A stretch of 60,087 nucleotides of DNA, counting the filler. It is 4 parts of 4 records of this genome, joined end to end, with 100 filler letters (N's around TTAATTAATTAA, not from the genome) between each part and the next. Parts side by side here need not be neighbours in the genome. Positions count along the whole stretch, not along the records: positions 35,017 to 48,641 come from SRR31156797_713; 3 more parts are not named here. One strand, written 5' to 3'. The translations under genes were made by a program, and so were the position numbers. Below are positions 28,362 through 48,581 of this stretch, one piece after another. Under the pieces are notes generated by a model. It saw only the letters and a list, made by a program, of their open reading frames with translations. It was not told the DNA's origin and searched no databases. Each line of letters begins with the position of its first letter. The first letter of the stretch is position 1.

Positions 28362-28405
28362 TAACACTCCTCAAGCCTCTTTACAATGCTCACCCCGAGG
28401 AGTTA
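28362..28405. ncRNA. Candidate abiF-associated RNA hairpin
   Basis: ACTCCTC (28366-28372) / GAGGAGT (28397-28403) closing a 24-nt loop just upstream of the Abi gene. Confidence 0.45.
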
Positions 28406-28415
28406 CTTTTATTTT

Positions 28416-29285
28416 ATGACTACACAAAAAAAATCTTATACAAAACCATTTTTAGATACAGAATCACAAATTATTCAATTAAAAACTCGTGGAATGATAT
28501 TTGAAGATGAATTATTTGCTAAAAAACAATTAGAAAATATAAATTACTACAGACTAAGTGGATATTGGCTTATTTGTGAAGAAGATCATGAGACACATAA
28601 GTTTTATGACAATACAAAATTTGAAACTATTTTAGATATTTATGTTTTTGATAGAGAGTTGAGACTTCTTTTTTTAGAAGTGATAGAGCGAATAGAAGTA
28701 TCTATAAGAACAAGATTTGCATATATTTTATCCCAAAAATATGATTCACATTTTCATTTACGACCAGAACTTTTTGATTGTCCAATCAGATATTCACAAA
28801 CGATTGTAAAATTAAAAAATCAAGTAAACAGAAGTAAAGAGAAATGTGTAGTGCATTTTAAAAATAATTATAAAGAAAGTTTACCTCCTATTTGGTCAAG
28901 TGTTGAACTTATGACATTAGGACAAGTTTCAAATTGGTTTGATAATATAAAGCATAGACAAGATAAACAAAAAATTGCAAAATATTATAATCTTGATGAA
29001 AAGGTTTTAAGCTCTTTTCTTCATCATTTAACAATAGTGAGAAATATATTAGCTCATCATTCAAGGTTATGGAATAAAAAAATACCATTAGATTTTATTT
29101 TACCCAAAAACCCAAAAGAATTAAATGAAAAAGTCAATTATAAGACGAGAAAGTATTTGTATAATACTATAGTAGTGACTGATCATATTTTAAACTATAT
29201 AGATGAAGATAATAATTGGTTTGAGAGAGTTGAAGAACTAATAAAACAATACAATATAGATAAAAAGAGAATGGGATATTATTAG
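28416..29285 (+). CDS. Abi (AbiD/AbiF, Abi_2) HEPN-domain protein
   Basis: LKTRGM, INYYRLSGY, YVFDRELR, PPIW, HEPN motif RNILAHHSRLWN; start re-assigned to 28416 because the 28386 ATG lies inside the hairpin. Confidence 0.88.
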   Translation: MTTQKKSYTKPFLDTESQIIQLKTRGMIFEDELFAKKQLENINYYRLSGYWLICEEDHETHKFYDNTKFETILDIYVFDRELRLLFLEVIERIEVSIRTRFAYILSQKYDSHFHLRPELFDCPIRYSQTIVKLKNQVNRSKEKCVVHFKNNYKESLPPIWSSVELMTLGQVSNWFDNIKHRQDKQKIAKYYNLDEKVLSSFLHHLTIVRNILAHHSRLWNKKIPLDFILPKNPKELNEKVNYKTRKYLYNTIVVTDHILNYIDEDNNWFERVEELIKQYNIDKKRMGYY

Positions 29286-29290: not shown

Positions 29291-32200
29291 ATGAATAAAA
29301 TATTTAACTACTTAAAACAATACAAAGATTTAGAGCTTCTGATCGTTTCCGATGAGAAGCAATCGCTAGTGGCATACGATTGTGCTGCATACTTGGGAAG
29401 AAAGCCGTTTGTCTTAAGTGATCTACGTGCAAATTTTGGGGATGATCTTTTATCATTTTCCGATGAGATCAAAGAGCTCACGGCAACACTTGAAGAGTAT
29501 CATAACTATAAAAAACAGAATAAGCTTTTGATCGTTCCTGTTCGAACTGCTTCGTATCCACTTCCAAAAAAAAGCTGTTTTGATTCTTTAGAGATTGAGT
29601 TTGGAGATACTCTAAAACATGATGAATTAAAAGATAAGCTATATAATTGGGGATACTATTTTGTTGATATCGTAAGTGAGCCTGGTGAAGTTTCCATTCG
29701 TGGAGATATTATCGATATTTGTCCACCTCATGAGGAGTTTGGATATAGGATATCACTTTTTGATGATGAGGTTGAATCGATTCGAAGATTTGATATTGAG
29801 ACACAAAAATCCCAATCAGATGAACTTGAAAAAGCTATTGTGTCTGCTTCATTTTTAGCTTTTGATGAAGAAAAACTTGACAAACTAAATGAAAAGATAG
29901 AAGCAAGCGGTATAGAGGTCTTTGAAAAAGATATCCACTCTTTAGGGTTTTGGTTTTTGGATGAAGAGGCAAATTATTATACAAAAGAGTTACGCTCATC
30001 TATTACAAAAGAAGCCCTTGATGAGATTGAAGAGGTGTATATCTTTGATGAACTTAGGATAGAAAAAGAGGAGCTTTTATCTACCACACCTATTTTAGAA
30101 GATGAAAAATATAAGCAAGTTGATGTTGCCAATGTAAGTGAATTTTTAGAGTTTCATAAAGATAAAAAGGTCACTATTATAAGTTCTACTGAGGGAAAAG
30201 TTCGCTCCTACGATCTCTTACTCTCTGAATACAAAGAGATTTTCCCAAAAGAAGATACAAATATCAATTATGTGGAAAACAGTTCGAATAATATCGTTTA
30301 TGCTCCGTGGATCATCAATCTAGTTTCCGATGATGAGGTGATCATCTCTTTAAATAAAGAGGTGAAAAAACGAAGAAAGAAAAAGCCAAAGATTGTTTTA
30401 GATGAATTGACAAAAGATGATTTTGTGGTTCATGAAGTGCATGGAATAGGGCAGTTTAAAGGGATCGAACCAGTTACGGTGATGGGAGCAAAGCGTGATT
30501 TTGTAGTGGTACAATACGCGGGAGAGGATAGGCTTTTAATCCCTGTTGAAAATATTGGCATAATTGATCGATATTTAGCAGATAGTGGATCTATAGCAGT
30601 TGTTGATAAACTTGGGCGTGGGAGCTTTGCTAAATTAAAAAGTAAAGTCAAAGAGAAGCTTTTTGCTATTGCTAATGATATTATAGGAATTGCTGCAAAA
30701 AGAGAGCTAACCAAAGGGCTTTATATCGATACAACTAAAGAGGAGTTGAAACTTTTTCAAAATCAAGCAGGATTTGAATATACCAAAGATCAAACTAGAA
30801 GTGTCAAAGAACTTTTAGCAGATATAAACTCAGGTCTTGTGATGGATAGACTTTTAAGTGGAGATGTTGGATTTGGAAAAACAGAGGTAGCGATGAATGG
30901 ATTGCTGGCTACTATTTTAAATGGCTATCAAGCTTTATTTGTATGCCCCACTACACTTTTATCTAATCAACATTTTGCAGGGATCAAAAAACGACTTGAG
31001 CCATTTGGAGTAAAAGTAGCCAAACTTGATGGAAAAACTACAACAAAAGAGAAAAATGCTTTAAAAAAATCTTTAAAAGAAGGGCAGATCGATCTAGTTG
31101 TTGGTACCCATTCACTTTTAAGTGTAGAGTGTAAAAATCTGGCTCTTGTGGTTATCGATGAAGAGCATAAGTTTGGGGTAAAACAAAAAGAGAAGCTTAA
31201 AAATCTAAGAAATGATGTGCATATCTTTTCTATGAGTGCTACACCGATCCCTAGAACTTTAAACCTAGCCTTATCAAAAGTAAAAGGGATGAGCGCACTG
31301 TTAACACCTCCAAGTGAGAGATTAGGGGTGCGAAGTTTTGTAAAAGAGTATGATGAAAAACTTATCAAAGAGATCATCCTAAGAGAAAAAAGACGTGGTG
31401 GACAGCTATTTTATATCTATAATAATATCGCTACTATTGAAACAAAAAAAGAGGATATCTTAGAGATACTCCCAAATTTAAAAATAGCCGTGATGCACTC
31501 AAAAATCACCCAAAAACAAAGTGAAGAGACTATTGAAGCTTTTGCCAATGGAGAGATTGATATCTTACTTGCAACAAGTATTGTAGAATCTGGACTGCAC
31601 CTTCCAAATGCAAATTCTATGATTATAGATGGAGCTGATAGATTTGGTATTGCTGATCTTCATCAGCTTCGAGGACGAGTTGGACGAAGTGATAAAGAGG
31701 GATTTTGTTACTTTTTAGTTGAAGATAAAAAAACGATCACTAAAGATGCAATTCGAAGACTTTTAGCACTTGAATCAAACTCATACCTTGGAAGTGGAAC
31801 CGCTTTAGCGCATCAAGACTTAGAGATACGTGGTGGTGGAAATATCATTGGAGAAGCACAAAGTGGACATATCAAACAAATAGGATATGGGCTGTATCTT
31901 AAGATGCTAGAAGAAGCGATTGCAACTTTAAGTGGAGAGATGAAAGAGGAGCAAAAAGAGGTCGATATCAAGCTTAGTATCACGGCATATATCACTAGTG
32001 AGTATATTTCTGAAGATAGAGTTCGGTTAGAGCTTTATAGACGGCTTAGTCGCTGTGAGTCTAAAAAAGAGGTATTTGAGATACAAGATGAGATGGAAGA
32101 TCGATTTGGAAAGTTAGATACAGCAACTTCTCAGTTTATAGACCTTATCATTATAAAGATCAATGCCTTAGAGCGAAATATTAAAACTATCAGCAATTAT

Positions 32201-32323
32201 GATATGAATATTACAGTAGTGTTTAATGATGAGCAAAAACAGACATTAAAAGCCCCTAGTCGAGATGATGATGACCTTATCAAAACAACTCTCTCTTTTC
32301 TTACATCTAAAAAGGAAAAATGA
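29291..32323 (+). CDS. mfd: Transcription-repair coupling factor
   Basis: RGDIID, VVHEVHGIG, GDVGFGKT, DEEH, SATPIPRT, QLRGRVGR, DLEIRG, TRCF tail. Confidence 0.96.
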   Translation: MNKIFNYLKQYKDLELLIVSDEKQSLVAYDCAAYLGRKPFVLSDLRANFGDDLLSFSDEIKELTATLEEYHNYKKQNKLLIVPVRTASYPLPKKSCFDSLEIEFGDTLKHDELKDKLYNWGYYFVDIVSEPGEVSIRGDIIDICPPHEEFGYRISLFDDEVESIRRFDIETQKSQSDELEKAIVSASFLAFDEEKLDKLNEKIEASGIEVFEKDIHSLGFWFLDEEANYYTKELRSSITKEALDEIEEVYIFDELRIEKEELLSTTPILEDEKYKQVDVANVSEFLEFHKDKKVTIISSTEGKVRSYDLLLSEYKEIFPKEDTNINYVENSSNNIVYAPWIINLVSDDEVIISLNKEVKKRRKKKPKIVLDELTKDDFVVHEVHGIGQFKGIEPVTVMGAKRDFVVVQYAGEDRLLIPVENIGIIDRYLADSGSIAVVDKLGRGSFAKLKSKVKEKLFAIANDIIGIAAKRELTKGLYIDTTKEELKLFQNQAGFEYTKDQTRSVKELLADINSGLVMDRLLSGDVGFGKTEVAMNGLLATILNGYQALFVCPTTLLSNQHFAGIKKRLEPFGVKVAKLDGKTTTKEKNALKKSLKEGQIDLVVGTHSLLSVECKNLALVVIDEEHKFGVKQKEKLKNLRNDVHIFSMSATPIPRTLNLALSKVKGMSALLTPPSERLGVRSFVKEYDEKLIKEIILREKRRGGQLFYIYNNIATIETKKEDILEILPNLKIAVMHSKITQKQSEETIEAFANGEIDILLATSIVESGLHLPNANSMIIDGADRFGIADLHQLRGRVGRSDKEGFCYFLVEDKKTITKDAIRRLLALESNSYLGSGTALAHQDLEIRGGGNIIGEAQSGHIKQIGYGLYLKMLEEAIATLSGEMKEEQKEVDIKLSITAYITSEYISEDRVRLELYRRLSRCESKKEVFEIQDEMEDRFGKLDTATSQFIDLIIIKINALERNIKTISNYDMNITVVFNDEQKQTLKAPSRDDDDLIKTTLSFLTSKKEK

Positions 32324-33102
32324 TGGAAAATGAACCTTTAAAGCAAAGTGTATCTGGAATGAATAATATTGTATCTATAGTACTAGGTGTAGCAGTGGTT
32401 GGGCTTCTAGCTATTGGAGGGTATATTTCCCAAACTAATGATATCGTTCCAAAGGGAAAAGAGAATAGCTTCCAAGATCTTCCAAAAAATGTGCAAGAGC
32501 AATATATTTTAAAAAATGAGATCTTAGATCTAGAAAAAGAGCTTCAAGATACAAAAGCAAAAGTTGAAAGGTTACAACTTCAAAGAACAGAACCAAAAGT
32601 GGATCAAGAGAATCAAGAGAATCAAAATGTTGCCATATCAACAGTAACTTCTGAAGAGTTGAATAAAAAATTAGAGATCAGAGAAAAAGTTATTGAGAAA
32701 ATTATAGAAATAAAAACAGAGATTGATAAGGATAAATATAAAACATATACTTGTAAAAGTTTTGAAGCAGGGGGAATTGTAATTCCACAGTCATGTAAAA
32801 AAGAGTTATTCCGATTTTTAGACTCCCATCAAGATTCAAAACTTTTTGAGATTATAGGCTTGGTTGATAATATGGAGTTTAGGCTTATTAAAAACCTTGA
32901 AGAGGTATATGGAAAAGAGAAAATAAAAGATATAAAAAAATATGTTCAAAGGGGACTCTCTCGACAAAGGGTTGTGGAGATGACATGGCTTATCAAAGAG
33001 CATTTTAGAAAACTTGGAAATGATGAGTTTAAGCTCAATGCAGTAAATTACTCTCTTTATTCAAAGGATAAAAGAGGGTTTGTTATTAAAGCCTATTATT
33101 AA
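32320..33102 (+). CDS. Hypothetical membrane-anchored coiled-coil protein
   Basis: N-terminal TM, coiled coil, C-terminal globular domain; overlaps the mfd stop. Confidence 0.7.
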   Translation: MMENEPLKQSVSGMNNIVSIVLGVAVVGLLAIGGYISQTNDIVPKGKENSFQDLPKNVQEQYILKNEILDLEKELQDTKAKVERLQLQRTEPKVDQENQENQNVAISTVTSEELNKKLEIREKVIEKIIEIKTEIDKDKYKTYTCKSFEAGGIVIPQSCKKELFRFLDSHQDSKLFEIIGLVDNMEFRLIKNLEEVYGKEKIKDIKKYVQRGLSRQRVVEMTWLIKEHFRKLGNDEFKLNAVNYSLYSKDKRGFVIKAYY

Positions 33103-34136
33103 TGATCTATGATATTGCAATTTTAGGAGCTGGAGCGAGTGGCTTAATGGCTGCTAGTTTATCAAAAAATAAAAACATTTGTATCATAGATTCCAATAAA
33201 GAGATTGGTGCAAAAATAAAAATCAGTGGTGGATCAAAGTGTAATATTACAAACCAGTATCTCTCTTCAGAATATTATTTAGGTCCAAAAGAAAGAATTG
33301 AAAATGTTTTTCAAAGATTTGATAATAAAAGTTTATTGTCTTTTTTAAATACTCATGGGGTATTTCCAAAGGTTGATGAAAAGATTGTTAAAGGAACTTA
33401 TTTTTGTAACTCTAGTACAGATGTTATTCAAATGTTTAAAAACTTAACAAAAAAAGCACACTATTTTTTAGAACATAAAGTTTTAGATGTAGAAAAAAAA
33501 GAAGATGTTTTTACGATAGCTAGTGATAAAAAAATATTCCAAGCAAAAAAACTGATCGTAGCAACTGGAGGTTTATCATACTCAATTTTAGGTGCAAGTG
33601 ATATTGGATATAAGATAGCAAAAAAGTTTGGACACACTGTGAGTAGGTTAGATCCTGCACTTGTAGGCTTTACTGTACAAAAAGAGCAATTTTGGTTTAA
33701 AGAATTAAGTGGACTTTCCGTAGATGTACGAATCACTATTGAAGATAAAAATATTGAAGGGAAAATGCTCTTTACCCATAAAGGGTGTAGTGGTCCAGCA
33801 ATTTTGAGTGCTTCACTTTATTGGACAAAGGGAAATATTAAAGTCAATTTTCTTCCTTTTAAAAACTCTTATTTACCAAAAAGATTAAAAAAAATTATAA
33901 ATGAACATAAAATTGATCCTAAAAATTATCTTTTTTCACCAGCAGGAAACTTTGGATATACTAAAGCTGAGGTGACAAAAGGTGGGGTATTGCTAGATGA
34001 ATTAAATGAAAATATGGAAAGTAGTTATATAAAAGATCTATATTTTATAGGTGAGGTGACCGATATTACAGGAGAATTAGGTGGATATAATTTTCAATGG
34101 GCATTTAGTAGTGCATGGTGTATGAGTAGTTTATAA
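33102..34136 (+). CDS. BaiN/HI0933-family flavoprotein
   Basis: GAGASG, KIKISGGSKCN, ATGG, VTKGG, GGYNFQWA. Confidence 0.9.
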   Translation: MIYDIAILGAGASGLMAASLSKNKNICIIDSNKEIGAKIKISGGSKCNITNQYLSSEYYLGPKERIENVFQRFDNKSLLSFLNTHGVFPKVDEKIVKGTYFCNSSTDVIQMFKNLTKKAHYFLEHKVLDVEKKEDVFTIASDKKIFQAKKLIVATGGLSYSILGASDIGYKIAKKFGHTVSRLDPALVGFTVQKEQFWFKELSGLSVDVRITIEDKNIEGKMLFTHKGCSGPAILSASLYWTKGNIKVNFLPFKNSYLPKRLKKIINEHKIDPKNYLFSPAGNFGYTKAEVTKGGVLLDELNENMESSYIKDLYFIGEVTDITGELGGYNFQWAFSSAWCMSSL

Positions 34137-34202
34137 AAACTATTAATTAAATTATAATAATTTATAAGATAAAATTTTGTAAAATTAATAAAAAGGCTTG
34201 AG

Positions 34203-34916
34203 ATGTTTTTTTCCAATAGTGCAAAGAATGAGGAGTGTGAACAGCTAAAAACTGAAGTTGAAAATCTTCAAAAACAGCTGAGTGAACTCAAAGCGCAACA
34301 TGCAAGAGAGATTCAACAGATTTCTTCAGAGTCGCAAAGTCAAATACAATCTTTAGAAAAAAAATATCAACAGATGCAAGATATTGCTTCTTTTAGTACT
34401 ACTGAGGGGTTGATTGCTGTTGATAGTTCTAAAAATATTATTTTTCAAAATGAGCGTGCGAAACAAAACATTAAAAATACTGCACCATTTTTAAGTGCTA
34501 TCTCTAATCAAGCTGAAACAATACTTGTAGAGGATTGTGAAGCAAAACTCACATATAAACAGTTTGGTGATATCACAGCAGTTTCACTAGTGAAAACATC
34601 GATCCATGATAATGCAGATGATGGATTACTTCACAAACACAACTCTAATATTAATCAGTCTCTAACTGGAACACAAACAGTATATCAAGAGCTTTTAGAT
34701 GAGCTTGATAATATGATGAAAGAATCAAAAGAGACTGCATCAGGTTCTACTGAAGGACTAAGCTTAACTCAAAGTATCGTAAAAGATACTAATAATCTAA
34801 ATGATCAGATCGTAACAGAAAATGAGATCGTAACAAATCTTGTTCAAAAAAGTGATGATATTGCTGGTGCAATTACTGTAATTGATCAAATTGCTTTCCA
34901 AACAAATATTCTTTCA
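34203..34916 (+). CDS. Methyl-accepting chemotaxis protein (3'-truncated by contig end)
   Basis: Ends in IDQIAFQTNILS, the start of the MCP signalling hairpin. Confidence 0.85.
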
Positions 34917-35016
34917 NNNNNNNNNNNNNNNNNNNNNNNNNNNNNNNNNNNNNNNNNNNNTTAATTAATTAANNNNNNNNNNNNNNNNNNNNNNNNNNNN
35001 NNNNNNNNNNNNNNNN
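34917..35016. other. Artificial contig linker
   Basis: N-run + TTAATTAATTAA + N-run. Confidence 0.98.
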
Positions 35017-35043
35017 TTGTGGCACCACACCCCCTTTTTGTGG
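35017..35043. repeat. Terminal overlap / iteron-like 21-bp unit
   Basis: Unit TTTTTGTGGCACCACACCCCC; same as 48612-48641; followed by AT-rich 35090-35145. Confidence 0.75.
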
Positions 35044-35196
35044 CCTTAAAGCCTGAAACAGGCTGAAAATAAAGCAAAAAAACGGCCCGAAATATATTAA
35101 AGAGTTTAAATATATTAAACAACAACATAGAAAAATTTAAAAACCCTGTTGTTGTTGTTCTTTCTTAAAAATCCAAACAACCAATTTATACAAAAG

Positions 35197-35221
35197 GGTA
35201 TACAGTACCGTACTGTATACC
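35197..35221. promoter_or_regulatory. Perfect 12-1-12 palindrome in the origin region
   Basis: GGTATACAGTAC-C-GTACTGTATACC. Confidence 0.6.
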
Positions 35222-35262
35222 ACCAAACAACTAACTTGCCCTTAACAGGGGCAATAACTAAC

Positions 35263-35364
35263 TCTGGCCGTCGTCCGCTACGCTCCCGACTTCACTTCCG
35301 CTTAAGGAAAATTGCCATTAAAATTGCGGAAGTGAAGTCGGGACCTACCAGCCCGACGGCCAGA
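35263..35364. other. GC-rich long hairpin (candidate oriT or single-strand origin)
   Basis: 11-bp outer stem, 10x10 internal loop, 18-bp perfect inner stem; flanked by AACTAACT boxes. Confidence 0.55.
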
Positions 35365-35403
35365 ACTAACTTTTTAAACTACCTTTTAAAACTAACTAAA
35401 AAC

Positions 35404-35412
35404 TGATATAAT
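35404..35412 (+). promoter_or_regulatory. Extended -10 promoter of the first replication-relaxation gene
   Basis: TG-A-TATAAT about 28 nt upstream of ATG 35440. Confidence 0.55.
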
Positions 35413-35439
35413 TCTACCAGTTAAACATAACAAAACCTA

Positions 35440-36402
35440 ATGAAATTAAAATATAGAAAATATACCCGAAACAAAAAACTAACTCAAATCAAAATACCAC
35501 ACCTGCAAGAACGAGACTTTAAAATTTTTTGTATTCTTCATGATTTCCGTTTTTGTAATTCCCGTCAAATTTCGGCACTTTTCAAAGGCGATGATCAAAA
35601 AATAGTCCGACGTCTCAACCTGCTTTATCATGCTGGTTGGCTTGATAGAATAAGAAGCCCTTTTATTATCAATGAGCCCATGATTTACGGCCTAACAAAC
35701 AAAACATACAATTTAATTTTTGAAAAATTGGGGCTTGAAAAAAAGAAAACTAACTACTCATCAAATAATAAGAAAATTTCTCCTTATTCTATTCCGCATT
35801 ACTTAGATACATCCGAGTTTATTATTGCCATTCAACTGGCCTGTAAAAACAAAGGCTATAAATTTGTATCGAGGCATGAAATAAAAAACGGGCTAAAAAA
35901 AAGAAAAGTTAAAGGCGTAAAGTTTGCCCCTCTTTCATGGACTGTCAACATTGAAAAGGAATTAAAAGAAAGGAACAAAAAAATCACGAACACCAACACG
36001 AAAATCAATCTTACCCCAGACTATATTTTTGCAATCGAGAAAAACAAAAAGACATATTATTTTTGTTTAGAAACTGACAAAGGGACAATGACACAAATTC
36101 CAAAAAATATTTCAAGGTCATCAATATATAAAAAATTCATGTGTTATCATGTGAGTTTTATATCTGAAATTTTTAATAAAAAGCTACACTTCAATGAAAT
36201 AAGAGTCTTAACCATCACCACATCAACCCAACGGCTTAACAATATGATTGACGTTATAAAAGACATTGACGAAAGAAAAAAAGGGTTGAGACTCTTCAAT
36301 TTTTCGGAACTGTCAAAAATCAGTGTCCAAGATCCGGACAAATTTTTTTCCGCAATTTGGTTGACTTCGAGAGGAGAAAAAAGAATAAAATTATTTAAAT
36401 AA
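35440..36402 (+). CDS. Replication-relaxation (Replic_Relax / MOBL-like) protein 1
   Basis: N-terminal wHTH (ERDFKI...RRLNLLYHAGWL), IPHYL, LTPDYIF, CLETDKGTM, KKFMCY, RVLTIT. Confidence 0.78.
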   Translation: MKLKYRKYTRNKKLTQIKIPHLQERDFKIFCILHDFRFCNSRQISALFKGDDQKIVRRLNLLYHAGWLDRIRSPFIINEPMIYGLTNKTYNLIFEKLGLEKKKTNYSSNNKKISPYSIPHYLDTSEFIIAIQLACKNKGYKFVSRHEIKNGLKKRKVKGVKFAPLSWTVNIEKELKERNKKITNTNTKINLTPDYIFAIEKNKKTYYFCLETDKGTMTQIPKNISRSSIYKKFMCYHVSFISEIFNKKLHFNEIRVLTITTSTQRLNNMIDVIKDIDERKKGLRLFNFSELSKISVQDPDKFFSAIWLTSRGEKRIKLFK

Positions 36403-36424
36403 TAAAAAAATGATATAGTTAAAT

Positions 36425-36684
36425 AACTAGTTGTTTTCTTTGATGTTTAACAGGCACGATGTAGCGGTTTTTGACGGCTATGGCAAACGTTAAAAACCGC
36501 TGTCCTTTACATTACTTTACGGCTGAATAAGCCCTGCACTCCAAAGGAGTGTTTGCAGTCGTATAAGACTTGTCCCCGTTTTTGCTTATTAAACGAGTTA
36601 ATTTCAGAGTTGTAAAAATCGGAATGACGTCAAGTTAGAAATAAGACTAGGCTAAAAGAGTGCATCAGCACTTTTTTAGTTTCT
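36425..36684 (+). ncRNA. Candidate structured ncRNA (~255 nt)
   Basis: Extended -10 at 36411-36419; closing stem 36427-36447/36627-36650; five internal helices with + strand G-U wobbles; terminator-like hairpin 36651-36680. Confidence 0.6.
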
Positions 36685-36686
36685 AT

Positions 36687-36718
36687 AAAAAAAAGACGCA
36701 CAAACAAAAGCGTCTTTT
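36687..36718 (-). terminator. Intrinsic terminator of the primase gene
   Basis: AAAAGACGC/GCGTCTTTT stem with an A-run on the left (U-tail on the minus strand). Confidence 0.65.
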
Positions 36719-36724
36719 ATCATT

Positions 36725-37708
36725 TTAAGCCTTGCCAGAGAGTAAAGCAAAGACTTGTTTTTTATTTAATAGATGAGGTTTTTTTTCATAAATTGAGACA
36801 TCAAAAGCTTTTACAAAACAACCTTTCCCGAGTAACAAAAGACATTCTTTTGTACATTTTTGACCGTCTTCATCACCGTCAAACAATAAATAAGCGTGAC
36901 CATTAGGCTTTAAATATTCGTAAATTAAATCAGCCTGGTTTTCACCTATGACCGAGCCCATAAGGGCCACAGTATTTAAAAGCCCGTAACTCCAAAACTT
37001 CCAAACGGTCAAAAAACTTTCGACGATAATTAAAGATTGGCGTTCGCCTGTTTGTCGGTGAAGATTATACACCTCCAACATTTTCAAAAAATCGGGGGGA
37101 AGTTTGTATTTTCCGTCTTCTTTTTCTTGTTCTTCATCAACCGCCCGGCCACAATAGGCCACCAGCTCACCCTTGATGTTGTGAATGGGGATCACCACTC
37201 TATCTTTCATCATTCCCTTTTTACAATAGCCCAGCCCGAAATAATCAATTTCAGCTTCAGTTATTTTTTTTCTTTCAAAAAAAGCGTGTTGTTTTTCAAT
37301 GCTTTTCAGTTGAAAATCCAACGGGGTATTTTCGCTTTTCTGCTCCTCTTTTTCCTCCTCCCCTCTTTCCTCTTTTCTCTCTTTCTTCTTCTCGAATTTC
37401 TTTTTGCCATTGTTCCCGCCCAAAAACCATTTTTGGAGTAACAGGCCCGCCTGATGAACGTTGACCCCCTCCATACTGGCCACAAAGTCAAGGACGTTCC
37501 CGCCGCTTTTACAATTTCCAAAACAGTTATAAGCGTTTTTTTCAAAAGAAACGGAAAATTGTTGAGGGTTGCTCCCCTTGTGGATCGGACAACACCCTTT
37601 CCAATCTTTACCACTTTTTTTTAAGGTTACCCCGTATCTGTCCAAGACCTCTTTAATGGATATTTTAGCCTTTACCTCTCCATAGTCGACCCAATTTTTT
37701 TTACTCAT
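36725..37708 (-). CDS. DnaG-like primase (CHC2 zinc finger + Toprim)
   Basis: CCPIH...CFGNC, GGNVLDFV, RVVIPIHN...YCGR, KY, IVES, FDGDEDG. Confidence 0.85.
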   Translation of the reverse strand: MSKKNWVDYGEVKAKISIKEVLDRYGVTLKKSGKDWKGCCPIHKGSNPQQFSVSFEKNAYNCFGNCKSGGNVLDFVASMEGVNVHQAGLLLQKWFLGGNNGKKKFEKKKERKEERGEEEKEEQKSENTPLDFQLKSIEKQHAFFERKKITEAEIDYFGLGYCKKGMMKDRVVIPIHNIKGELVAYCGRAVDEEQEKEDGKYKLPPDFLKMLEVYNLHRQTGERQSLIIVESFLTVWKFWSYGLLNTVALMGSVIGENQADLIYEYLKPNGHAYLLFDGDEDGQKCTKECLLLLGKGCFVKAFDVSIYEKKPHLLNKKQVFALLSGKA

Positions 37709-37925
37709 CTTTTTACCTCCTCTAAAAAGAACTGTTTAGAAAGAATGATAAAAATTAAGTCTAATTAAGTCAAATTTTTTAAAGCTAAAGGATAATTGGG
37801 GCACTACGCATTTTATATTTTGCAAACAAAATCAAATAGATATATCATCAAGGCTTTTTCAGAAATTCAAAAAAATATAGCCAATAAAATCAACCAATTG
37901 CTTGAAATATTGAGGCACTACAAAA

Positions 37926-38714
37926 ATGTTTGTGAGGAAAAAAGGCAACCGGTTTTACTTGGTAGAAAACAACCGGACTAATGGAAAGGTGAGACAAAAG
38001 GTAATAAAATATTTAGGGGTCAACCCCCGGGAAACAAGCTACCTGCCAAAATTGAATAAAATTCATCATGCAAAAGTAGAAGACTTTTTAAAAAAACTTC
38101 CGGATGATTCTTGTGATTGCATGATTGCCGATCCCCCGTATTTTATCAGTCAAAAAAGAATATTCACCCGGAACGGAAAACCGATAAACAAGGATTTTGG
38201 CCGGTGGGATCATGGCCACTTTCAAGAGTTCATGGATAGCTGGCTGAATGATTGTTTCAGAGTTCTAAAACATAACCTCTTTCTATTTTGCCGGTTTGAA
38301 AACATCGGGTATTTTTTCGAGCACTACAAAAGGTATTACAAAACGGCTATTGTCTGGCACAAAACAAACCCCACGCCCCACTTTCAAAAAAATACTTTTA
38401 TATCTTCCTGCGAGTCGATTATTTTTTTTCAAAAAAGGAAAGGACTTTTCAATTTTCTGTCTGTCAATGACATGCACAATTTCATCGAGACCCCCAACGA
38501 AACAAGACGAGGGATCAGAATCAACTCGACCCAAAAACATGAAAAATTAATCCAGTGGCTTTTAGAGATCGGAAGTAATAAAAATTCTTTGGTTCTGGAC
38601 TTATTTTCCGGTAGTGGAATTGTTTCCGGAACGGCCAAAAAAATGGAAAGAAATTTCATTGGTGTTGAGAATGATTTTTCAATGCTTAGAAAAGCAAGAA
38701 AAACTACTGTCTGA
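37926..38714 (+). CDS. Orphan beta-class DNA N6/N4-methyltransferase with short N-terminal extension
   Basis: DPPY (motif IV) before DLFSGSG (motif I); IVWHK; no cognate endonuclease recognised. Confidence 0.88.
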   Translation: MFVRKKGNRFYLVENNRTNGKVRQKVIKYLGVNPRETSYLPKLNKIHHAKVEDFLKKLPDDSCDCMIADPPYFISQKRIFTRNGKPINKDFGRWDHGHFQEFMDSWLNDCFRVLKHNLFLFCRFENIGYFFEHYKRYYKTAIVWHKTNPTPHFQKNTFISSCESIIFFQKRKGLFNFLSVNDMHNFIETPNETRRGIRINSTQKHEKLIQWLLEIGSNKNSLVLDLFSGSGIVSGTAKKMERNFIGVENDFSMLRKARKTTV

Positions 38715-38717
38715 ACC

Positions 38718-38827
38718 CCTGAGAGCCACGAGGTTCAACGTTCTCCGGGTTACGTATATAAAACCATGGCCTTTTTCCAAGGCTTTGAGAAAATAAAGCC
38801 CCGGGGTTTTTCTCAAAGTGTCTCAGG
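38718..38827. terminator. Hairpin region between convergent genes
   Basis: CTTTGAGAAAA (38783-38793)/TTTTCTCAAAG (38808-38818), enclosed by CCTGAGA/TCTCAGG. Confidence 0.4.
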
Positions 38828-38849
38828 TTTTTTAAGGGATAGGTTAGTT

Positions 38850-39425
38850 TTATTTCAGAATTGCAACAAGAATGGCGACGGTAATAGAAACAACCGAAAT
38901 TATAAGAGACGACACATTTATTTTGATACTTGTACGTTCTGTTTTTGTGCTAGGTGTAATTTCTCTTTGTCCTTCCATACAAAAATCTATACACTTTTCG
39001 AAATGTTCCATGCCTTGTTTCTTCTTCGGAACTCTAAGATCGCGTCCTTTATCAAAATGTCTTAAAGCATCGTTTAAAAAATTTTGTGCACGCCCTATCT
39101 CAGAAAAGAAACCGGAATTTTCAATGCGTTCACGTAAATCCGTTAAAAAAACACCAGCTAGGAACTCATATCCATTAACATCGAGATCACTCATATGTTT
39201 TCTGGCATGTATATATTGTTCATCAATTTTGTTCTGGTTTTTTGGATCTCCATTTATTTCTAGCTCAAGAGCGGCTATAATGTGACTCAGGGTGTGCCTA
39301 ACATTTTCGTAATACTTTGCATTCATTGTCACAAAGGCTGTTTTGTTCTCAATGTGATTTTTATTTTTTTCTACCTCCCTATATTCGGCGATTATTTTGG
39401 TCAGCTCTTTGGAATATTCAACCAT
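38850..39425 (-). CDS. Hypothetical helical protein with R-x4-H motif and C-terminal TM
   Basis: AGGAG SD; ENVRHTLSH; hydrophobic C-terminus. Confidence 0.7.
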   Translation of the reverse strand: MVEYSKELTKIIAEYREVEKNKNHIENKTAFVTMNAKYYENVRHTLSHIIAALELEINGDPKNQNKIDEQYIHARKHMSDLDVNGYEFLAGVFLTDLRERIENSGFFSEIGRAQNFLNDALRHFDKGRDLRVPKKKQGMEHFEKCIDFCMEGQREITPSTKTERTSIKINVSSLIISVVSITVAILVAILK

Positions 39426-39441
39426 GCTAGGCTCCTACATG

Positions 39442-39475
39442 AAAAAAGCCGAAAACTGTTTTGTTTTCGGCTTTT
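39442..39475 (-). terminator. Terminator-like hairpin between the 87-aa and 191-aa genes
   Basis: AAAAGCCGAAAAC/GTTTTCGGCTTTT. Confidence 0.65.
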
Positions 39476-39490
39476 GTTTTTGGGGCTTCT

Positions 39491-39754
39491 TTAGGCGAAT
39501 GTATGAATTAATCGTTTAAAGAAACTTGGTTTTTTACGAATATCCTCTTCAGTTATTCTAGAAGGGACTCGACAAAATGAATGTAGGTTTCCTTTTTTTA
39601 AAATGCGACTGCCTTTTGGTATTCGCAAATAAGAGGAAGCCGGATACAAGGATTCATTTTGAAGCGCTATATCAATTTCGAGGAGCTTCCTTTTCCGATC
39701 TTCATTTTTTCTTTTTTCCATTTTTCTTCCTCTGTTTGCATACGAAATCCGCAA
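39491..39754 (-). CDS. Small basic hypothetical protein
   Basis: 87-aa ORF; likely start at the second Met after a GAGG-like SD. Confidence 0.5.
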   Translation of the reverse strand: MRISYANRGRKMEKRKNEDRKRKLLEIDIALQNESLYPASSYLRIPKGSRILKKGNLHSFCRVPSRITEEDIRKKPSFFKRLIHTFA

Positions 39755-39870
39755 CCAATCTTTTAATAGTTTACAAAAAACTTCTCCAGATAACAGACAA
39801 TTGTTTGTTTTGCAAGAATAATTTTAAGAACTAAGCCCAAAATTTTTGAGTAAAAAACACTTTTCCATAT

Positions 39871-40203
39871 TTACTTGAATGGAATAAGCATTTGTTTGTT
39901 TTCATATGAAACTATAAGTTTGGAAAGATCATTGGGAGAAACGTCCCCTACTTTTTTTTCAAGAACATCAAAAGGAACTTTTTCGAAAATGTTCTTTATC
40001 TCTTTGATTTTATAAGAATATTTCTTTAATTCGGAAATCAATTGAAGTTGTGTAACGCTTTCTTCAGAATATAGACACCGGCTGTTTTTCTGTTGATAGG
40101 TTATAAGACCAAGGGTGCGGTATCCATGCACGGTTGCGTCTGCTCCCTTAAATCTTGCTTTTGTTTTAAATTGGCTAAAAGTCAGGTTAAACTTGCTGTT
40201 CAT
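39871..40203 (-). CDS. MerR-like HTH protein
   Basis: TVHGYRTLGLI...RCLYSEESVTQLQLISELKKYSYKIKEIK pattern. Confidence 0.65.
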   Translation of the reverse strand: MNSKFNLTFSQFKTKARFKGADATVHGYRTLGLITYQQKNSRCLYSEESVTQLQLISELKKYSYKIKEIKNIFEKVPFDVLEKKVGDVSPNDLSKLIVSYENKQMLIPFK

Positions 40204-40251
40204 TTTATTTCCAATAAGTTCTCAAATCTTTCATATGTGACTCCTTATAGA

Positions 40252-40281
40252 TAAGCTATCATAGCTTAGAGAAGAAGTCAA
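40252..40281 (-). promoter_or_regulatory. Sigma70 promoter with overlapping palindromic operator
   Basis: Minus strand TTGACT-17-TAGCTT with TG; palindrome TAAGCTATCATAGCTTA over the spacer/-10. Confidence 0.55.
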
Positions 40282-40326
40282 GAATATTTTTTAATTATTT
40301 GAAAGGTTAATCTTAAATTTGCATTT

Positions 40327-40977
40327 TTAAATCAGCCCCTTGTCTTTCAAAATGTTTTTTGCTTCTTGGCCACTGGCCCGCAAATATATAGCGGTTGTGT
40401 TAAGTGAGGAATGCCCCAAAAGATCTTGAACGATTGAAACCGGCACACCGGCCCGCAAAAGTTCAAAGGCCCTTGTGTGTCTTAAAATATGAGGGTGGGC
40501 CAAGTCTTTGGGTATTCCGGCCACTTTTGCTCGATTATAAAAAACCCGTCTGAAATTCCCAGCCGTCATTGAAAAAATCCGCCCTTTCATTTCCGGAAAA
40601 TGTCCCCAATAGGTGGCAATTTCCGAAGTAACATTCAAGGGAACCGGAACAATCCGGATAGGATTCTTTTTTCTTTTGAGCGTTAAAATTTTAATCTCCC
40701 CTGCCCGGGTGTCCACGTCTTGAATGTCGTCAAGCCCTTTATTTTTTTTATCTTCTGTTCCGATCACTTCCCCCAACCGGCAACCAGTGAAAAGAAGAAT
40801 TAAAAAAATTAGCCAGTGCCTCCCCCGGATTCTTCTTTTCTTTTCGCTCCCCGCTTCATCATACCAGCTTAAAAAACAGTCCGTCAGTTTCTTTATTTGA
40901 TCCGGTGTAAGATGAGCCAGGCCCGCCCCTGGGGAATTAACCAGGCTGTTTGATTTTTGGATAATTTCTCTTTTCAT
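40327..40977 (-). CDS. Minimal tyrosine recombinase (probable multimer resolvase)
   Basis: Catalytic R (TGCRLGE), K (TLKR), HILRH, LLGH, Y (TTAIY); 216 aa with little N-terminal domain. Confidence 0.88.
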   Translation of the reverse strand: MKREIIQKSNSLVNSPGAGLAHLTPDQIKKLTDCFLSWYDEAGSEKKRRIRGRHWLIFLILLFTGCRLGEVIGTEDKKNKGLDDIQDVDTRAGEIKILTLKRKKNPIRIVPVPLNVTSEIATYWGHFPEMKGRIFSMTAGNFRRVFYNRAKVAGIPKDLAHPHILRHTRAFELLRAGVPVSIVQDLLGHSSLNTTAIYLRASGQEAKNILKDKGLI

Positions 40978-41070
40978 TTTTTATCGTTTTCTTTTAGGTT
41001 TTCGATAATATTATACCACGAAACTATCCAAAATCTAAAATTTTGAGCTGGTTTTTCCCTTAAAAATAAA

Positions 41071-41106
41071 AAAAATTATCGAAAATATGAGTTTTCGATA
41101 ATTTTT
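41071..41106. promoter_or_regulatory. Candidate tyrosine-recombinase crossover site
   Basis: AAAAATTATCGAAAA-TATGAG-TTTTCGATAATTTTT (15-6-15); degenerate copy at 40981-41009. Confidence 0.7.
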
Positions 41107-41359
41107 AAAAGCTGTTATTTTTCTTTATCTCTCTTTGTCTTTCCCTCTCCGCTTGTTTGGCGTTCATAACCCCTCTTAGCCATTCAATCGTTGTGGGGTT
41201 TTCTTCCATCCAATCTGCATAATCCTGTAAGGCTTTTTCGAGGTTTGGAATAGCGTCTGGATTGTCTTTAATAAATTGTTCATACTCTTTTTTTCTTCTG
41301 GCTCTGTCTCTCTCATGCCATTCAGCGTTAAACATTTCAGAATATTTTAGCTGTCCCAT
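41105..41359 (-). CDS. Hypothetical protein
   Basis: 84-aa ORF with GGGGG-type SD, in a co-oriented minus-strand cluster. Confidence 0.6.
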   Translation of the reverse strand: MGQLKYSEMFNAEWHERDRARRKKEYEQFIKDNPDAIPNLEKALQDYADWMEENPTTIEWLRGVMNAKQAERERQREIKKNNSF

Positions 41360-41382
41360 TTTCCGCCCCCGTCTTTATTTTC

Positions 41383-41904
41383 TCAAATTTTTTTGTAATC
41401 AAGCAACGGATGATATTTAATATTACCCCTTGCCTCTGAAAACAAACTCCAAAAATTCTTTTTCTTTTTATCAAATTTTTCATCTCCGATTATTATAAAA
41501 TCAAGAAATTTGAGATTCAATCGGCAAGATATATCCTGTAACTCTTTAATTAAAATATCGTCGCTTTTAGACGGTTTACAAGAACCGCTTGGGTGATTGT
41601 GTACCACAATAAAAGAATGTGCGTCTGACATAAGGATAGGTTTGAAAAGTCTTTTAGTGTTGATTTCCACCTCTGCCGTATCTCCAAGAGCAACAACATC
41701 AAAAAACTTGATAATTAATTTTTCGTCTAAACATACACACACGCAAGTTTCAACGGCTTCGCTTTTCATTGCTAAAAAAGTTTTTCCGACTTCTTCGGGA
41801 TATTCTAAAGGTTTATTGTCCAACAAATTTGGATATTCCCCGTCTTCAAGTATCAGCTTGACTTTTTTTAGATATTTCTTTTTGTTGTTATTCCTTTTTT
41901 GCAT
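41383..41904 (-). CDS. RadC-like JAB/MPN domain protein
   Basis: E...VHNHPSG...PSKSD...FLDFIII. Confidence 0.88.
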   Translation of the reverse strand: MQKRNNNKKKYLKKVKLILEDGEYPNLLDNKPLEYPEEVGKTFLAMKSEAVETCVCVCLDEKLIIKFFDVVALGDTAEVEINTKRLFKPILMSDAHSFIVVHNHPSGSCKPSKSDDILIKELQDISCRLNLKFLDFIIIGDEKFDKKKKNFWSLFSEARGNIKYHPLLDYKKI

Positions 41905-41907
41905 CTT

Positions 41908-42225
41908 TTAAGCTCTTTGTTTTTCTAATAAGCCTATTCTGTTTTCCAACACTTCACTATATCTATTCTGTCTTCCAATTTCGTTTATAATATCTTTCTG
42001 ACCTTCTTCCAATTTCGAAACACCACTTTCTAATTTTGAAAAGCCTGTTTCTAATTTAGAAACTCGTTTTTTAATATCTTCTTGACCAGATTTTAAATCC
42101 TTTTGCCCGTCTTCTAATTTTGAAAGTCTTTTGTCCACCTCGTCGAATCTTTTTCCTACATCATCAAAACCTTTTCCAATCTCGAAAACCAAATCATCGA
42201 ATGTTAATTTTTTCTTTTTTGCCAT
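41908..42225 (-). CDS. Heptad-repeat coiled-coil protein
   Basis: Repeated SKLExG heptads. Confidence 0.7.
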   Translation of the reverse strand: MAKKKKLTFDDLVFEIGKGFDDVGKRFDEVDKRLSKLEDGQKDLKSGQEDIKKRVSKLETGFSKLESGVSKLEEGQKDIINEIGRQNRYSEVLENRIGLLEKQRA

Positions 42226-42357
42226 TTTGTTATTTTAAAAATTATAAAATCTATTTTTTAAATTGTGATTTTCCAAAATTCAAATCTTGGATCGATCATT
42301 TATTTTCTCGATCCCAAGATTTGAATTTTGGTTTAATTATTTTCCATTTTTTAAGAA

Positions 42358-42564
42358 TTAATAAACAAAAAGCCTTTTTGCTTTTTTTTGACAATCTGGA
42401 TTATCAGCACAACACCAACACTTGTGACCAAAACGTGTTTCTTCTTGATGATTATCAAAACAAATAATTTTTTGCATAAATTTTTCAAACCTGACCCGCC
42501 CACAAATAGAACATTTGTGGCGTTTGTCGACTATGGCCATAGTCGACATTTTTTTAGACTTCAT
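42358..42564 (-). CDS. Small Cys-rich (zinc-finger-like) protein
   Basis: CSICG...CWCCADNPDC. Confidence 0.5.
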   Translation of the reverse strand: MKSKKMSTMAIVDKRHKCSICGRVRFEKFMQKIICFDNHQEETRFGHKCWCCADNPDCQKKAKRLFVY

Positions 42565-42876
42565 TTGATTAAAAAATAATACCCTCTTCCCTTTCAGCCT
42601 ACCACCACCCGCCTACCTGTCAAGACGGCCATGGGCATGGCCACCCGCAGAAAAAGAAAAAGGGTAAACTCAATACTGAGCCTACCCTATTTTCCCCTCT
42701 TATTTGTATTGTAACATGTTGAAAATTTAAAGCAAACTATGACTGACGGAATACCACCCGTTTTTATATCGGCCATTATACCTGCCACCCATAAGGTAAT
42801 TATTAATTTCTTGCCAAAGCAGACACTAATTTATTAAAGAATAAATCCTCTCCCCTTTCGATGAGGTCGGTATAGA

Positions 42877-43758
42877 ATGAACCTACACAACGACGACCTG
42901 CTTTTGCTTTTCAACATTCAAAAATATTCATATCTCACCATTAACCAATCTGTCAGAGCCCTAAATAATGGCCGAAAATATCAAGCCGTGGCCCGCCGAC
43001 TTCGGGCCATGAATGAAAAAGGCTACTTATCTTTTTTCGGCCATACGAAAGTGGGCTTTGCCAATGTTCCAAAGGTCTACCACATCACCCGAAAAGGCTT
43101 TGGTGCTTTAGAAGATAATTTTTTGTATGAACAGATCGGAGACTTCCGTCAAAAGTCCCCGCCGAAATGGACGGCCAAAACTCAACACCGCCTAGCCTTG
43201 ATCGATGTTTTAATTTCTCTTGAAAACGGTTTGGCCAGCTTTGACCACTTGGAACTGATCAAAGTGGCCACGGAGTACCGCTTTATAAAAAGCGGAAAAT
43301 ACACCACGGCCGAAACAACCGATTACATCAGCGAAGACCGCACCAAGGAAAATAAGATCGTTCCGGACGGTGCTTTTATCTTGCACAGCCGGCGAACCGA
43401 CGCCCGAATTTTATTTTTCATCGAGATCGATATGGGAACGGAAAACATCACGGCCCGGGTGGCCACATCTTCCAATTTTCCCCTACTCCTGAAATTTCAA
43501 AAGTACGATCACTATCTAGCAAACAAAACATACGCCCGAAAATATCAACAATTCGGACGGTTTGATTACTTTATCATGCTTTTCATAACCACCACGGCCA
43601 AACGTATATCAAACGTGAAAAAAGTCCTTCCCGTATTGCCTGAGAAGCTCAATAAACATTACCGCTTTAACACTTTTTCCGAGGTATCGAGGAACTTTCT
43701 AAATGAGAACTGGCAGACCAGACAGCCAAACAACTCCAAGGGTTTCAAACTTTTTTAA
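42877..43758 (+). CDS. Replication-relaxation (Replic_Relax / MOBL-like) protein 2
   Basis: wHTH (RRLRAMNEKGYL, PKVYHITRKG), QHRLAL, IVPDGAF, FIEIDMGTE, KFQKY. Confidence 0.8.
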   Translation: MNLHNDDLLLLFNIQKYSYLTINQSVRALNNGRKYQAVARRLRAMNEKGYLSFFGHTKVGFANVPKVYHITRKGFGALEDNFLYEQIGDFRQKSPPKWTAKTQHRLALIDVLISLENGLASFDHLELIKVATEYRFIKSGKYTTAETTDYISEDRTKENKIVPDGAFILHSRRTDARILFFIEIDMGTENITARVATSSNFPLLLKFQKYDHYLANKTYARKYQQFGRFDYFIMLFITTTAKRISNVKKVLPVLPEKLNKHYRFNTFSEVSRNFLNENWQTRQPNNSKGFKLF

Positions 43759-43783
43759 AAACCAAGAAAGGGGAAGAAATTAA

Positions 43784-44179
43784 ATGAAAGTATCAATTAG
43801 GAAAGACCAAGCTAAAAAGTTAATCGGTGGTGTCAGTTTTGAAATGTATGTTGAAGTTCAATTAACCTCACAAGAGCGAGACCTTGTAAAAAGATACAAG
43901 GTATACAACGAAGCCCTTTATTTCAGAGAAACCGCAATCAAAACCATTGCCAAAATTACTATTGAAAGCCTGCTTGACGGTGTCAGTTTTAAGTGCAAAA
44001 ACATTGCCGAAATTATCGAACACGAGGAAGCCATTAAAGAGGCTTGCGAGAATTTTTACAATTACATTCAAGTGATGAAAGAATTTGGAGGGGAAGAAAT
44101 TTTAGAGTTTCCACCATCCGAAAAGCCCGCAGTAAATCAACCAGAACCTTACCAAGACGGTGATCGATTGGTTATTTAG
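43784..44179 (+). CDS. Hypothetical protein in the relaxase-VirD4 operon
   Basis: 131-aa ORF with SD, between relaxase 2 and the ATPase. Confidence 0.7.
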   Translation: MKVSIRKDQAKKLIGGVSFEMYVEVQLTSQERDLVKRYKVYNEALYFRETAIKTIAKITIESLLDGVSFKCKNIAEIIEHEEAIKEACENFYNYIQVMKEFGGEEILEFPPSEKPAVNQPEPYQDGDRLVI

Positions 44180-44203
44180 CAACCTCAACCTATTGGGGAG
44201 ACT

Positions 44204-46465: not shown

Positions 46466-46469
46466 AAGT

Positions 46470-48553: not shown

Positions 48554-48581
48554 AAAACGTCTTTTAATTATTTACAAGTCC

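Follow-up and report, generated by a model that had tools for sequence, protein, structure and literature searches.

The window analysed here, a stretch of DNA of 60,087 nucleotides (nt), contains a strongly folding, non-coding segment (36425–36684) between the gene for RR1, a Replic_Relax (PF13814) protein of the MOB_C type, and the gene for a DnaG-like primase. We regard it as rather likely that this segment is an RNA gene. In its fuller form, to which we give somewhat better than even chances on the strength of the sequence comparisons presented below, 36425–36680 on the + strand would be the gene for a discrete structured RNA, carried on a circular plasmid and corresponding to a diverged counterpart of an RNA family that occupies the same slot in related modules. 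The product would be a + strand RNA of ~255 nt, consisting of a folded core of ~225 nt followed by an intrinsic terminator, and would be made from its own extended −10 promoter as well as by read-through from the Replic_Relax gene. It would act through its fold rather than by antisense pairing. RR1, a nuclease, and the primase together make up a DNA-processing module, of which the RNA may be a bound cofactor or a regulator. The initial annotation of this DNA had proposed a discrete transcribed RNA at this place, and this is still the best-supported reading in view of the fold statistics, the placement of promoter and terminator and the covarying family in the same slot. This support is good for the structure itself and indirect for transcription and for homology to that family.

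When folded as RNA, the + strand of 36425–36684 reached −83.2 kcal/mol, compared with −57.3 ± 4.7 kcal/mol for shuffled sequences (z −5.55), and the reverse complement gave z −2.83. None of 200 dinucleotide shuffles was as good as the + strand, the outcome that the initial annotation had anticipated for a genuine RNA. With DNA energy parameters the + strand gave z −5.04, again with none of 200 shuffles as good. The core (36425–36651) showed z −4.88 (−66.8 kcal/mol), compared with z −1.96 (−51.8 kcal/mol) for its reverse complement. The fold of 36425–36684 is beyond chance and strand-specific. The bias of G-U pairs towards the + strand, to which attention had been drawn earlier, is small (7 of 73 pairs versus 5 of 70 on the − strand), and the asymmetry lies mainly in the two core energies just given. 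The proposal that the region holds no reading frame was confirmed, since no open reading frame (ORF) of at least 30 amino acids (aa) is present in 36403–36724.

The minimum free energy (MFE) architecture of the stretch is a three-way junction with a nested multi-hairpin arm. Its closing helix was recovered where it had been placed before, in three segments (36427–36432/36645–36650, 36435–36439/36637–36641 and 36440–36446/36627–36633) with minimum pair probabilities of 0.89, 0.77 and 0.93, respectively. The first hairpin, described as having 14 bp, is present (14 pairs at 0.85–1.00) but is 15 bp long (36462–36476/36488–36502), the extra closing pair having a probability of 0.40. Three of the inner hairpins were likewise found, namely 36536–36552 (0.89), GGCT/AGCC (0.77) and GTC/GAC (0.76), but CGTTT/AAACG reached only 0.20. 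The middle helices are uncertain, with pair probabilities of ~0.2. A helix that had been drawn at 36516–36527/36603–36616 has a pair probability of ~0 and represents an alternative register disfavoured by the energy model; the MFE structure instead pairs TGTAAA (36611–36616) with TTTACA (36506–36511) at a probability of ~0.2. The complementarity between TAAGC and a GCTTA loop is real and extends to 7 bp, although by our estimate a 7-bp match is expected by chance in an A+T-rich 227-mer.

Related modules were collected from metagenomes with an alignment of 30 primase proteins (A1), which recovered 80 loci, 31 of them encoding an RR1 homologue. In about 25 loci the primase gene lies after RR1 in the same orientation, many of the gaps being only 78–155 nt, and in these same-strand loci no RNA was recognised in the larger gaps or by the covariance model R1 described below. 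The five best RR1 matches (L114, L116, L117, L120 and the partial L121) have RR1 convergent with the primase gene, as in the window, and the 265–400 nt after their RR1 stop codons fold at z −3.0 to −4.8. These five share a common layout: a near-consensus σ70 promoter, a long helix between the 5' and 3' ends, an inner multi-hairpin domain and an intrinsic terminator directly after it. Further copies were found in L119 (94% identical to L120 over 153 nt and cut by the contig end), L122 and L115. The RNA lies directly after a Replic_Relax (MOB_C) homologue in all six loci whose upstream region was readable and showed one, and most of the loci have it convergent with a homologous primase gene. Upstream of the L122 RNA (1622–1819, minus strand), the 330 nt that remain before the contig ends contain no recognisable RR1 frame, and the RNA gene can thus exist separately from RR1. 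In L120, two genes lie between the RNA terminator and the primase gene (3608–4560, minus strand), one of which codes for a Thoeris ThsB-like TIR protein; the insert looks like defence cargo within the same module.

Altogether eight metagenome loci (L114, L115, L116, L117, L119, L120, L121 and L122) carry a four-way-junction RNA of 180–200 nt. For R1, the sequences of L120, L122 and L119 were combined with the fold of L120. In 407 kb it matched L114 (E 7.6e-10), L115 (3.9e-4) and L121 (8.5e-3) and, with filters off, L116 (2.8e-8) and L117 (1.8e-3), the next best match having an E-value of 0.16; in 1.22 Mb of unrelated loci used as a control, no match was obtained at E ≤ 1. In the alignment of all eight RNAs (A4), 90.1% of the pair cells hold standard pairs and both sides changed in 61 of 72 pairs, counts that are inflated because the alignment was fitted to the model. 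None of 500 shuffles reached A4 in any of five measures, and sliding the partners by 1–3 columns left 37–51% paired. As an independent check, a plain MAFFT alignment of L120 and L122 showed 11 compensated double changes, 10 one-sided changes that keep the pair and 14 broken or gapped pairs. MAFFT alignments of six of the RNAs, and of hairpin A by itself, were not good enough for modelling, and a scan for a GGCAA...TCC motif was discarded as too unspecific (430 matches in 396 kb).

The family fold is a tight four-way junction made up of a two-part closing helix and hairpins A, B and C. The apical part of B can form an uninterrupted run of at least 6 Watson-Crick pairs with the loop of C in seven of the eight members, and one of only 4 in L122, and the contact sequences differ between members (GGGAAC/GUUCCC, CGGAUAA/UUAUCCG, GGAUGC/GCAUCC, UGGACAA/UUGUCCA and GGGGAC/GUCCCC). 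The summed length of the B–C matches was reached by none of 2000 loop shuffles, and non-cognate loops averaged 4.6 pairs compared with 6.0 for cognate ones; a tertiary contact between the two loops is likely. Among the pair cells of the family, 78 hold G-U (about 15%) and 12 hold A-C (2%), and because G-U cells outnumber A-C cells to this extent, the RR1-sense strand is the folding strand. No small reading frame was conserved in the six loci examined. Judged from these alignments, the RNA in this slot of related modules is a genuine structured and covarying family. It is a candidate for a new family, defined by a four-way junction with a covarying loop-loop contact and absent from Rfam 15.

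The flanks of the RNA are also shared. In the window, an extended −10 box (TG-A-TATAGT) precedes the closing helix and a terminator-like hairpin follows it (Table 1); both had been pointed out before, and both are present and listed by a looser scan with stated criteria, although a strict consensus scan lists neither. The background of the looser scan was 0.92 promoter and 1.75 terminator calls per kb per strand. A promoter-like site was found 7–12 nt before the helix in six of the seven testable family loci, or seven of eight counting the window (L115 does not satisfy the criteria; L119 is truncated), and a terminator-like hairpin 1–30 nt after the helix in all nine loci (eight family loci and the window). 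The L114 promoter is near-consensus (TTGCCA-17-TATAAT), and the −35 boxes of L116 and L120 overlap the stop codon of RR1. Because the closing helix of the window follows the RR1 stop codon (36402) after only 24 nt and the first terminator lies beyond the structure, transcripts of RR1 have to run through it. A second hairpin, on the opposite strand, is likely the terminator of the primase gene, given the T run after it (Table 1).

By its position and by RR1 phylogeny, the window RNA is most simply explained as a strongly diverged counterpart of the family RNA. The stretch lies directly downstream of a Replic_Relax gene of the RR1 clade and on the same strand, with a promoter before and a terminator after its closing helix under the looser scan. 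In the RR1 tree, the window protein falls inside the RNA-bearing clade (support 99/97) as the sister of L117 (95/86), and in this tree an RNA-like structured stretch follows the stop codon of every clade member. Window and family RNAs are alike in slot, strand, 5'–3' helix, flanks, possible loop contact and size (224 nt versus 180–200 nt), whereas the window RNA is far more A+T-rich. The 7-bp complementarity in the window (36526–36532/36584–36590) parallels the B–C contact, although alone it is within chance by estimate. The window fold has a closing helix and a strong first hairpin, the rest forming a nested arm at pair probabilities of ~0.2, and forcing a family-like third hairpin costs 3.7 kcal/mol.

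Several points weigh against this assignment and against the RNA gene itself. With filters off, R1 found in 30000–50000 only the hairpin 36462–36502, at E 0.74. Neither the A4 sequence profile (nhmmer) nor a second model, R2, comprising hairpins B and C of all eight members, gave a match in the window region, and local alignments between window and family scored no better than shuffled sequence. The window architecture, with more hairpins and a three-way junction, differs from the tight four-way junction of the family. The window RNA is a singleton and has no covariation of its own, because no DNA relative of it was found, and the covariation counts of the family are inflated in the way described above. 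The window RR1 branch is by far the longest of the tree (2.27) and its composition is skewed, which makes its placement less sure. Both the window promoter and the terminator at 36651–36680 are missed by the simple consensus scan, the + strand transcript is a prediction, and the role of the RNA as partner of RR1 and the primase is one that we infer. Among sequencing runs, this DNA was found only in a DNA run, possibly the source of the window, and in no RNA run. The covariation that the initial annotation had proposed to look for in homologous loci was found in part: a covarying RNA occupies the same slot in relatives, but the window RNA is unmatched by the family models. Divergence past recognition is plausible, since the RR1 branch is so long and its composition skewed; the ancestral RNA may also have been replaced by a different structured element in the same slot. 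Short motifs that seemed common to window and family (AAC..CGA, GGCAAA, TTGTCCCC and GTTTGCAG) were rejected, as local alignment against shuffled sequences placed them within chance.

The view that the stretch belongs to no known family was upheld by Rfam 15 (4227 models, including ARRPOF and PAGEV), none of which matched near it at the gathering threshold. A scan of 36300–36800 at E ≤ 10 returned 19 matches, all far below the thresholds, and at E ≤ 1 the RNA region of the eight family loci gave no match. A blastn search with the stretch gave nothing in 72,556 plasmid and 50,697 phage records, and neither blastn nor nhmmer found it in the 80 primase loci. Apparent matches in 46 of 184 Arcobacteraceae genomes were dismissed as low-complexity noise, as they consisted only of pieces of 20–48 nt from the A+T-rich promoter end or from the T-rich 3' part and terminator end. 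No description of the four-way-junction RNA was found in the available portions of the full-text literature on relaxase, primase and non-coding RNA or on Replic_Relax and PF13814. ARRPOF, PAGEV and other large bacterial non-coding RNAs (ncRNAs) resemble the RNA described here in being structured, non-coding and plasmid-borne, but neither the window nor the eight family loci match the Rfam models of ARRPOF and PAGEV.

The strongest rival explanation, absent from the initial annotation, is that the stretch works as single-stranded DNA, that is, as a single-strand origin (sso) or priming signal that folds only on the displaced or transferred + strand and recruits RNA polymerase or a host or plasmid primase. 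We consider this unlikely. Priming at hairpins is known for plasmid and phage primases, and the dedicated primase encoded next door might use such a site; moreover, the + strand folds well with DNA parameters too, and the fold is strand-specific, non-coding and located beside a relaxase gene. Position, three-hairpin layout and strand specificity match sso1 of ICEBs1, which is functional, lies immediately downstream of the relaxase gene and has three predicted stem-loops and activity in a single orientation, as set out in the accessible parts of its description (PMC4595007). ICEBs1 sso1 and the pTA1060/pBAA1-type sso elements (PMC4595007) resemble the present stretch in being intergenic, immediately downstream of a relaxase gene, orientation-specific and composed of several stem-loops; they differ from it in that they act as DNA and need no flanking promoter, whereas here promoter and terminator bracket the fold and G-U pairs are frequent. 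A single-strand element would require none of the near-consensus double-strand promoters that lie 7–12 nt before the helix in seven of eight testable loci, and since a terminator would not fit between RR1 and the structure, the latter is transcribed anyway. About 15% of the family cells are G-U, and G-T in DNA costs more than G-U in RNA; a covarying loop-loop contact is, furthermore, typical of folded RNAs. The blastn search of the 72,556 plasmid records returned nothing similar, and no sso-type sequence similarity appeared in the plasmid and phage records, among which the presence of classical sso plasmids is unconfirmed. The plasmid carries a Rep_3 initiator, of a family that drives theta-type rather than rolling-circle replication, and its maintenance requires no rolling-circle intermediate. 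The DNA-level explanation nevertheless keeps a small share of the probability because the complementary strand still needs priming after conjugative entry. Roles as RNA and as single-stranded DNA are not mutually exclusive, and if the latter were true, the stretch would offer plasmid-borne DnaG-like primases a priming site of a new type.

Less probable again is that the RR1 mRNA simply ends in this structure as its 3' untranslated region, which would promote termination and ward off 3' exonucleases, with no separate RNA product and no role in trans. The structure begins 24 nt past the RR1 stop codon and has a terminator at its end, the −35 box of the window is weak and the strict scan calls no promoter, all of which would fit such an end. 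For that purpose, however, the terminator hairpin alone would suffice. A junction of ~200 nt and its loop contact are conserved across proteins that are ~30% identical, which implies selection on the fold itself, as does the covariation of the contact within the four-way junction. In addition, strong promoters precede the RNA in relatives, and the L122 RNA occurs with no RR1 frame in the 330 nt upstream.

An RNA that regulates plasmid copy number or transfer genes by antisense or other base pairing appears improbable. Small plasmids commonly use such RNAs, and in several relatives the RNA and the primase gene have a convergent terminator region in common; the two terminators of the window, however, are separate, and the RNA overlaps no gene in antisense. 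Its exact matches or complements elsewhere on the plasmid are at most 10–11 nt long, whereas shuffled sequences reach 12–13 nt, and duplex energies with the neighbouring translation starts in six loci ranged from z −2.5 to +0.8, with one value below −2. The copy-control role suggested earlier is disfavoured by this complementarity, which stays within the shuffled range, and the primer-RNA function mentioned alongside it found no support. The third role put forward there, that of a partner RNA of the adjacent nuclease, is a possible one.

The two remaining explanations have very little in their favour. An origin of transfer (oriT) or cruciform site cut by the Replic_Relax nuclease would suit a stretch adjoining a MOB_C-type relaxase gene, as large inverted repeats have been described at MOB_C oriTs, but we hold it to be very improbable: strand asymmetry and many G-U pairs are unexpected for a double-strand palindrome, no nick-like sequence common to the loci was found, and a better candidate exists upstream of RR1 (inverted repeat 35263–35364, with a similar one in L117). 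That the stretch is a type I toxin mRNA or some other fold-back gene for a small protein is scarcely credible, for although such loci resemble the stretch in size, 5'–3' end helix, own promoter and terminator and convergent neighbour, the + strand frames of the window are only 19–22 aa long and no hydrophobic peptide or Shine-Dalgarno-linked frame is common to the six loci examined.

Returning to the structured RNA, the tight linkage of its gene to the end of RR1 suggests that it works with RR1, and perhaps with the primase, in the processing of transfer DNA. Complex conserved structured ncRNAs are few in bacteria, and most of those known are parts of ribonucleoproteins, ribozymes or riboswitches. 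A bolder proposal, made by analogy and in our estimation doubtful, is that the RNA is an obligatory structural cofactor of a restriction-endonuclease-like relaxase, a role in which its four-way junction, with the loop-loop contact, would bind RR1 and possibly the primase and license or target the processing of transfer DNA. If this were true, conjugative DNA processing in this plasmid group would depend on a ribonucleoprotein. More generally, the RNA is a candidate new class tied to a little-studied conjugation machinery, that of MOB_C relaxases, here paired with a dedicated primase, and an RNA partner would be a testable lead on how these relaxases pass DNA to the secretion system. Dependence on an RNA has a tested precedent only in an unrelated system, Salmonella Genomic Island 1 (SGI1), the mobilization of which, according to the available sections of its description, needs sgm-sRNA, an RNA that is encoded in the mobilization module and adjoins an atypical relaxase gene (PMC9299015). 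The same sections indicate that the SGI1 relaxase is a relative of tyrosine recombinases, whereas RR1 is a PD-(D/E)XK protein, and that sgm-sRNA is processed from the 3' end of a primary transcript of 650–700 nt (PMC9299015). The parallel with the window RNA is functional only, and no similarity of sequence or structure is claimed.

The setting of the RR1 and primase genes is a mobilization module. MOB_C relaxases have a restriction-enzyme fold and are not known to use covalent tyrosine chemistry. Excerpts of the published accounts identify PF13814 as the MOB_C relaxase family (PMC5357655) and place it within the PD-(D/E)XK nuclease superfamily (PMC3424549). The PD...ExD...K residues are invariant across RR1, its paralogue RR2 and all relatives. 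The predicted model of RR1 (pLDDT 85.8) showed weak fold resemblance to winged-helix regulators of the MarR type and to restriction and nicking endonucleases; its top fold match was FokI (E 3.6e-3), and none was found at E ≤ 0.001. By sequence RR1 had no relative in the PDB, and the fold matches gave no pointer to RNA binding. Only 2 relatives, with 31–32% identity, were obtained from 825 word-sharing candidates drawn from a database of 5.8 billion proteins, and none from the plasmid collection, the 184 Arcobacteraceae genomes or 401 genomes of the order; a first search of genome contigs with RR1 had also given no match. L116 encodes an RR2 homologue (5010–5930, 47% identity) divergent from its RR1. 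A feature of RR1-type proteins absent from RR2 is a basic, Arg/Lys-rich motif at the N terminus.

The primase, in turn, belongs to a large family (1466 proteins at E ≤ 0.001, the top one with ~55% identity), although searches of the plasmid collection (at 1e-30) and of the 184 Arcobacteraceae genomes (at 1e-20) gave no match and viral contigs yielded only 8 distant ones. A methylase gene is divergent from the primase gene in the window, L120 and L121, and in L114 a coupling protein gene lies upstream of RR1. The inverted repeat upstream of RR1 (Table 1) is a candidate oriT of a MOB_C-type protein, as judged from its sequence and position, and a better one than the folded stretch; L117 has a comparably large inverted repeat upstream of its RR1 (about 2613–2800, minus strand). 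A perfect palindrome with 18-nt arms (CCAAAATTCAAATCTTGG / CCAAGATTTGAATTTTGG) is located at 42273–42331, in the gap upstream of RR2, and may represent a terminator or else a second site of the oriT-like or protein-binding kind.

Table 1. Features of the plasmid contig and of the folded stretch, in window coordinates.
Feature	Position	Strand	Remarks
Circular-plasmid contig	35017–48641	none	Carries RR1, the folded stretch, the primase and the inverted repeat
G+C-rich imperfect inverted repeat, 39-nt arms (candidate oriT)	35263–35364	none	Upstream of RR1, inside a doubtful 85-aa ORF (35149–35406)
RR1, Replic_Relax (PF13814, MOB_C-type)	35440–36402	+	Winged-helix and restriction-endonuclease-like domains; domain match E 2.1e-14
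Extended −10 promoter-like box TG-A-TATAGT	36411–36419	+	Weak −35; ends 8 nt before the closing helix
Folded core, closing helix around a multi-stem domain	36427–36650	+	From core MFE and pair probabilities
15-bp hairpin, 11-nt loop	36462–36502	+	Surest element of the fold
AATAAGC, complement of loop 36584–36590	36526–36532	+	Possible loop-loop contact or pseudoknot
7-bp hairpin GCACTCC/GGAGTGT	36536–36552 (36536–36542/36546–36552)	+	Minimum pair probability 0.89
CGTTT/AAACG hairpin, 9-nt loop holding GCTTATT (36584–36590)	36577–36595	+	Present in the MFE structure; pair probability 0.20
Terminator-like 13-bp hairpin	36651–36680	+	3' arm is a T run, with more T after; starts 1 nt after the closing helix
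Second hairpin GACGC/GCGTC (likely primase terminator)	36687–36718	−	T8 after it on the − strand
DnaG-like primase (CHC2 zinc finger and Toprim)	36725–37708	−	Convergent with RR1 and the folded stretch
RR2, second Replic_Relax paralogue	42877–43758		Precedes a small ORF and the coupling-protein-like ATPase
Coupling-protein-like ATPase	44204–46465		On the plasmid contig
Rep_3-type initiator	47240–48553	−	Rep3_N and Rep3_C domains, RepM-like

Spacers of the form N44-TTAATTAATTAA-N44 at 34917–35016 and 48642–48741 mark the window as three contigs chained together, so genes on either side of a spacer are not true neighbours and ORFs that enter one (e.g. 34203–34964) are cut. The middle contig (13,625 nt) has the same 27 nt at both ends (35017–35043 and 48615–48641), the usual mark of a circular assembly, and therefore reads as a circular plasmid of ~13,598 bp. 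The plasmid location given in the initial annotation was borne out by this circular contig, its Rep_3 initiator and the two PF13814 proteins of the MOB_C relaxase family. Further plasmid genes code for a short tyrosine recombinase, a RadC-like protein and an N6/N4 DNA methylase. The assignment to Arcobacteraceae/Campylobacterales is based on mfd of the first contig, which is 99% identical to locus L001, and covers the plasmid only via whatever binning joined the contigs.

Two known RNA elements, the only Rfam matches of the window at the gathering threshold, were observed on the other contigs. The first contig has an abiF Rfam motif (28367–28403, + strand; 45.2 bits, threshold 37) where an Abi_2-family gene (28386–29285) begins, and the third contig has a cobalamin riboswitch (52964–53162, − strand; 91.8 bits) upstream of an anaerobic ribonucleotide reductase gene (50680–52806, − strand).

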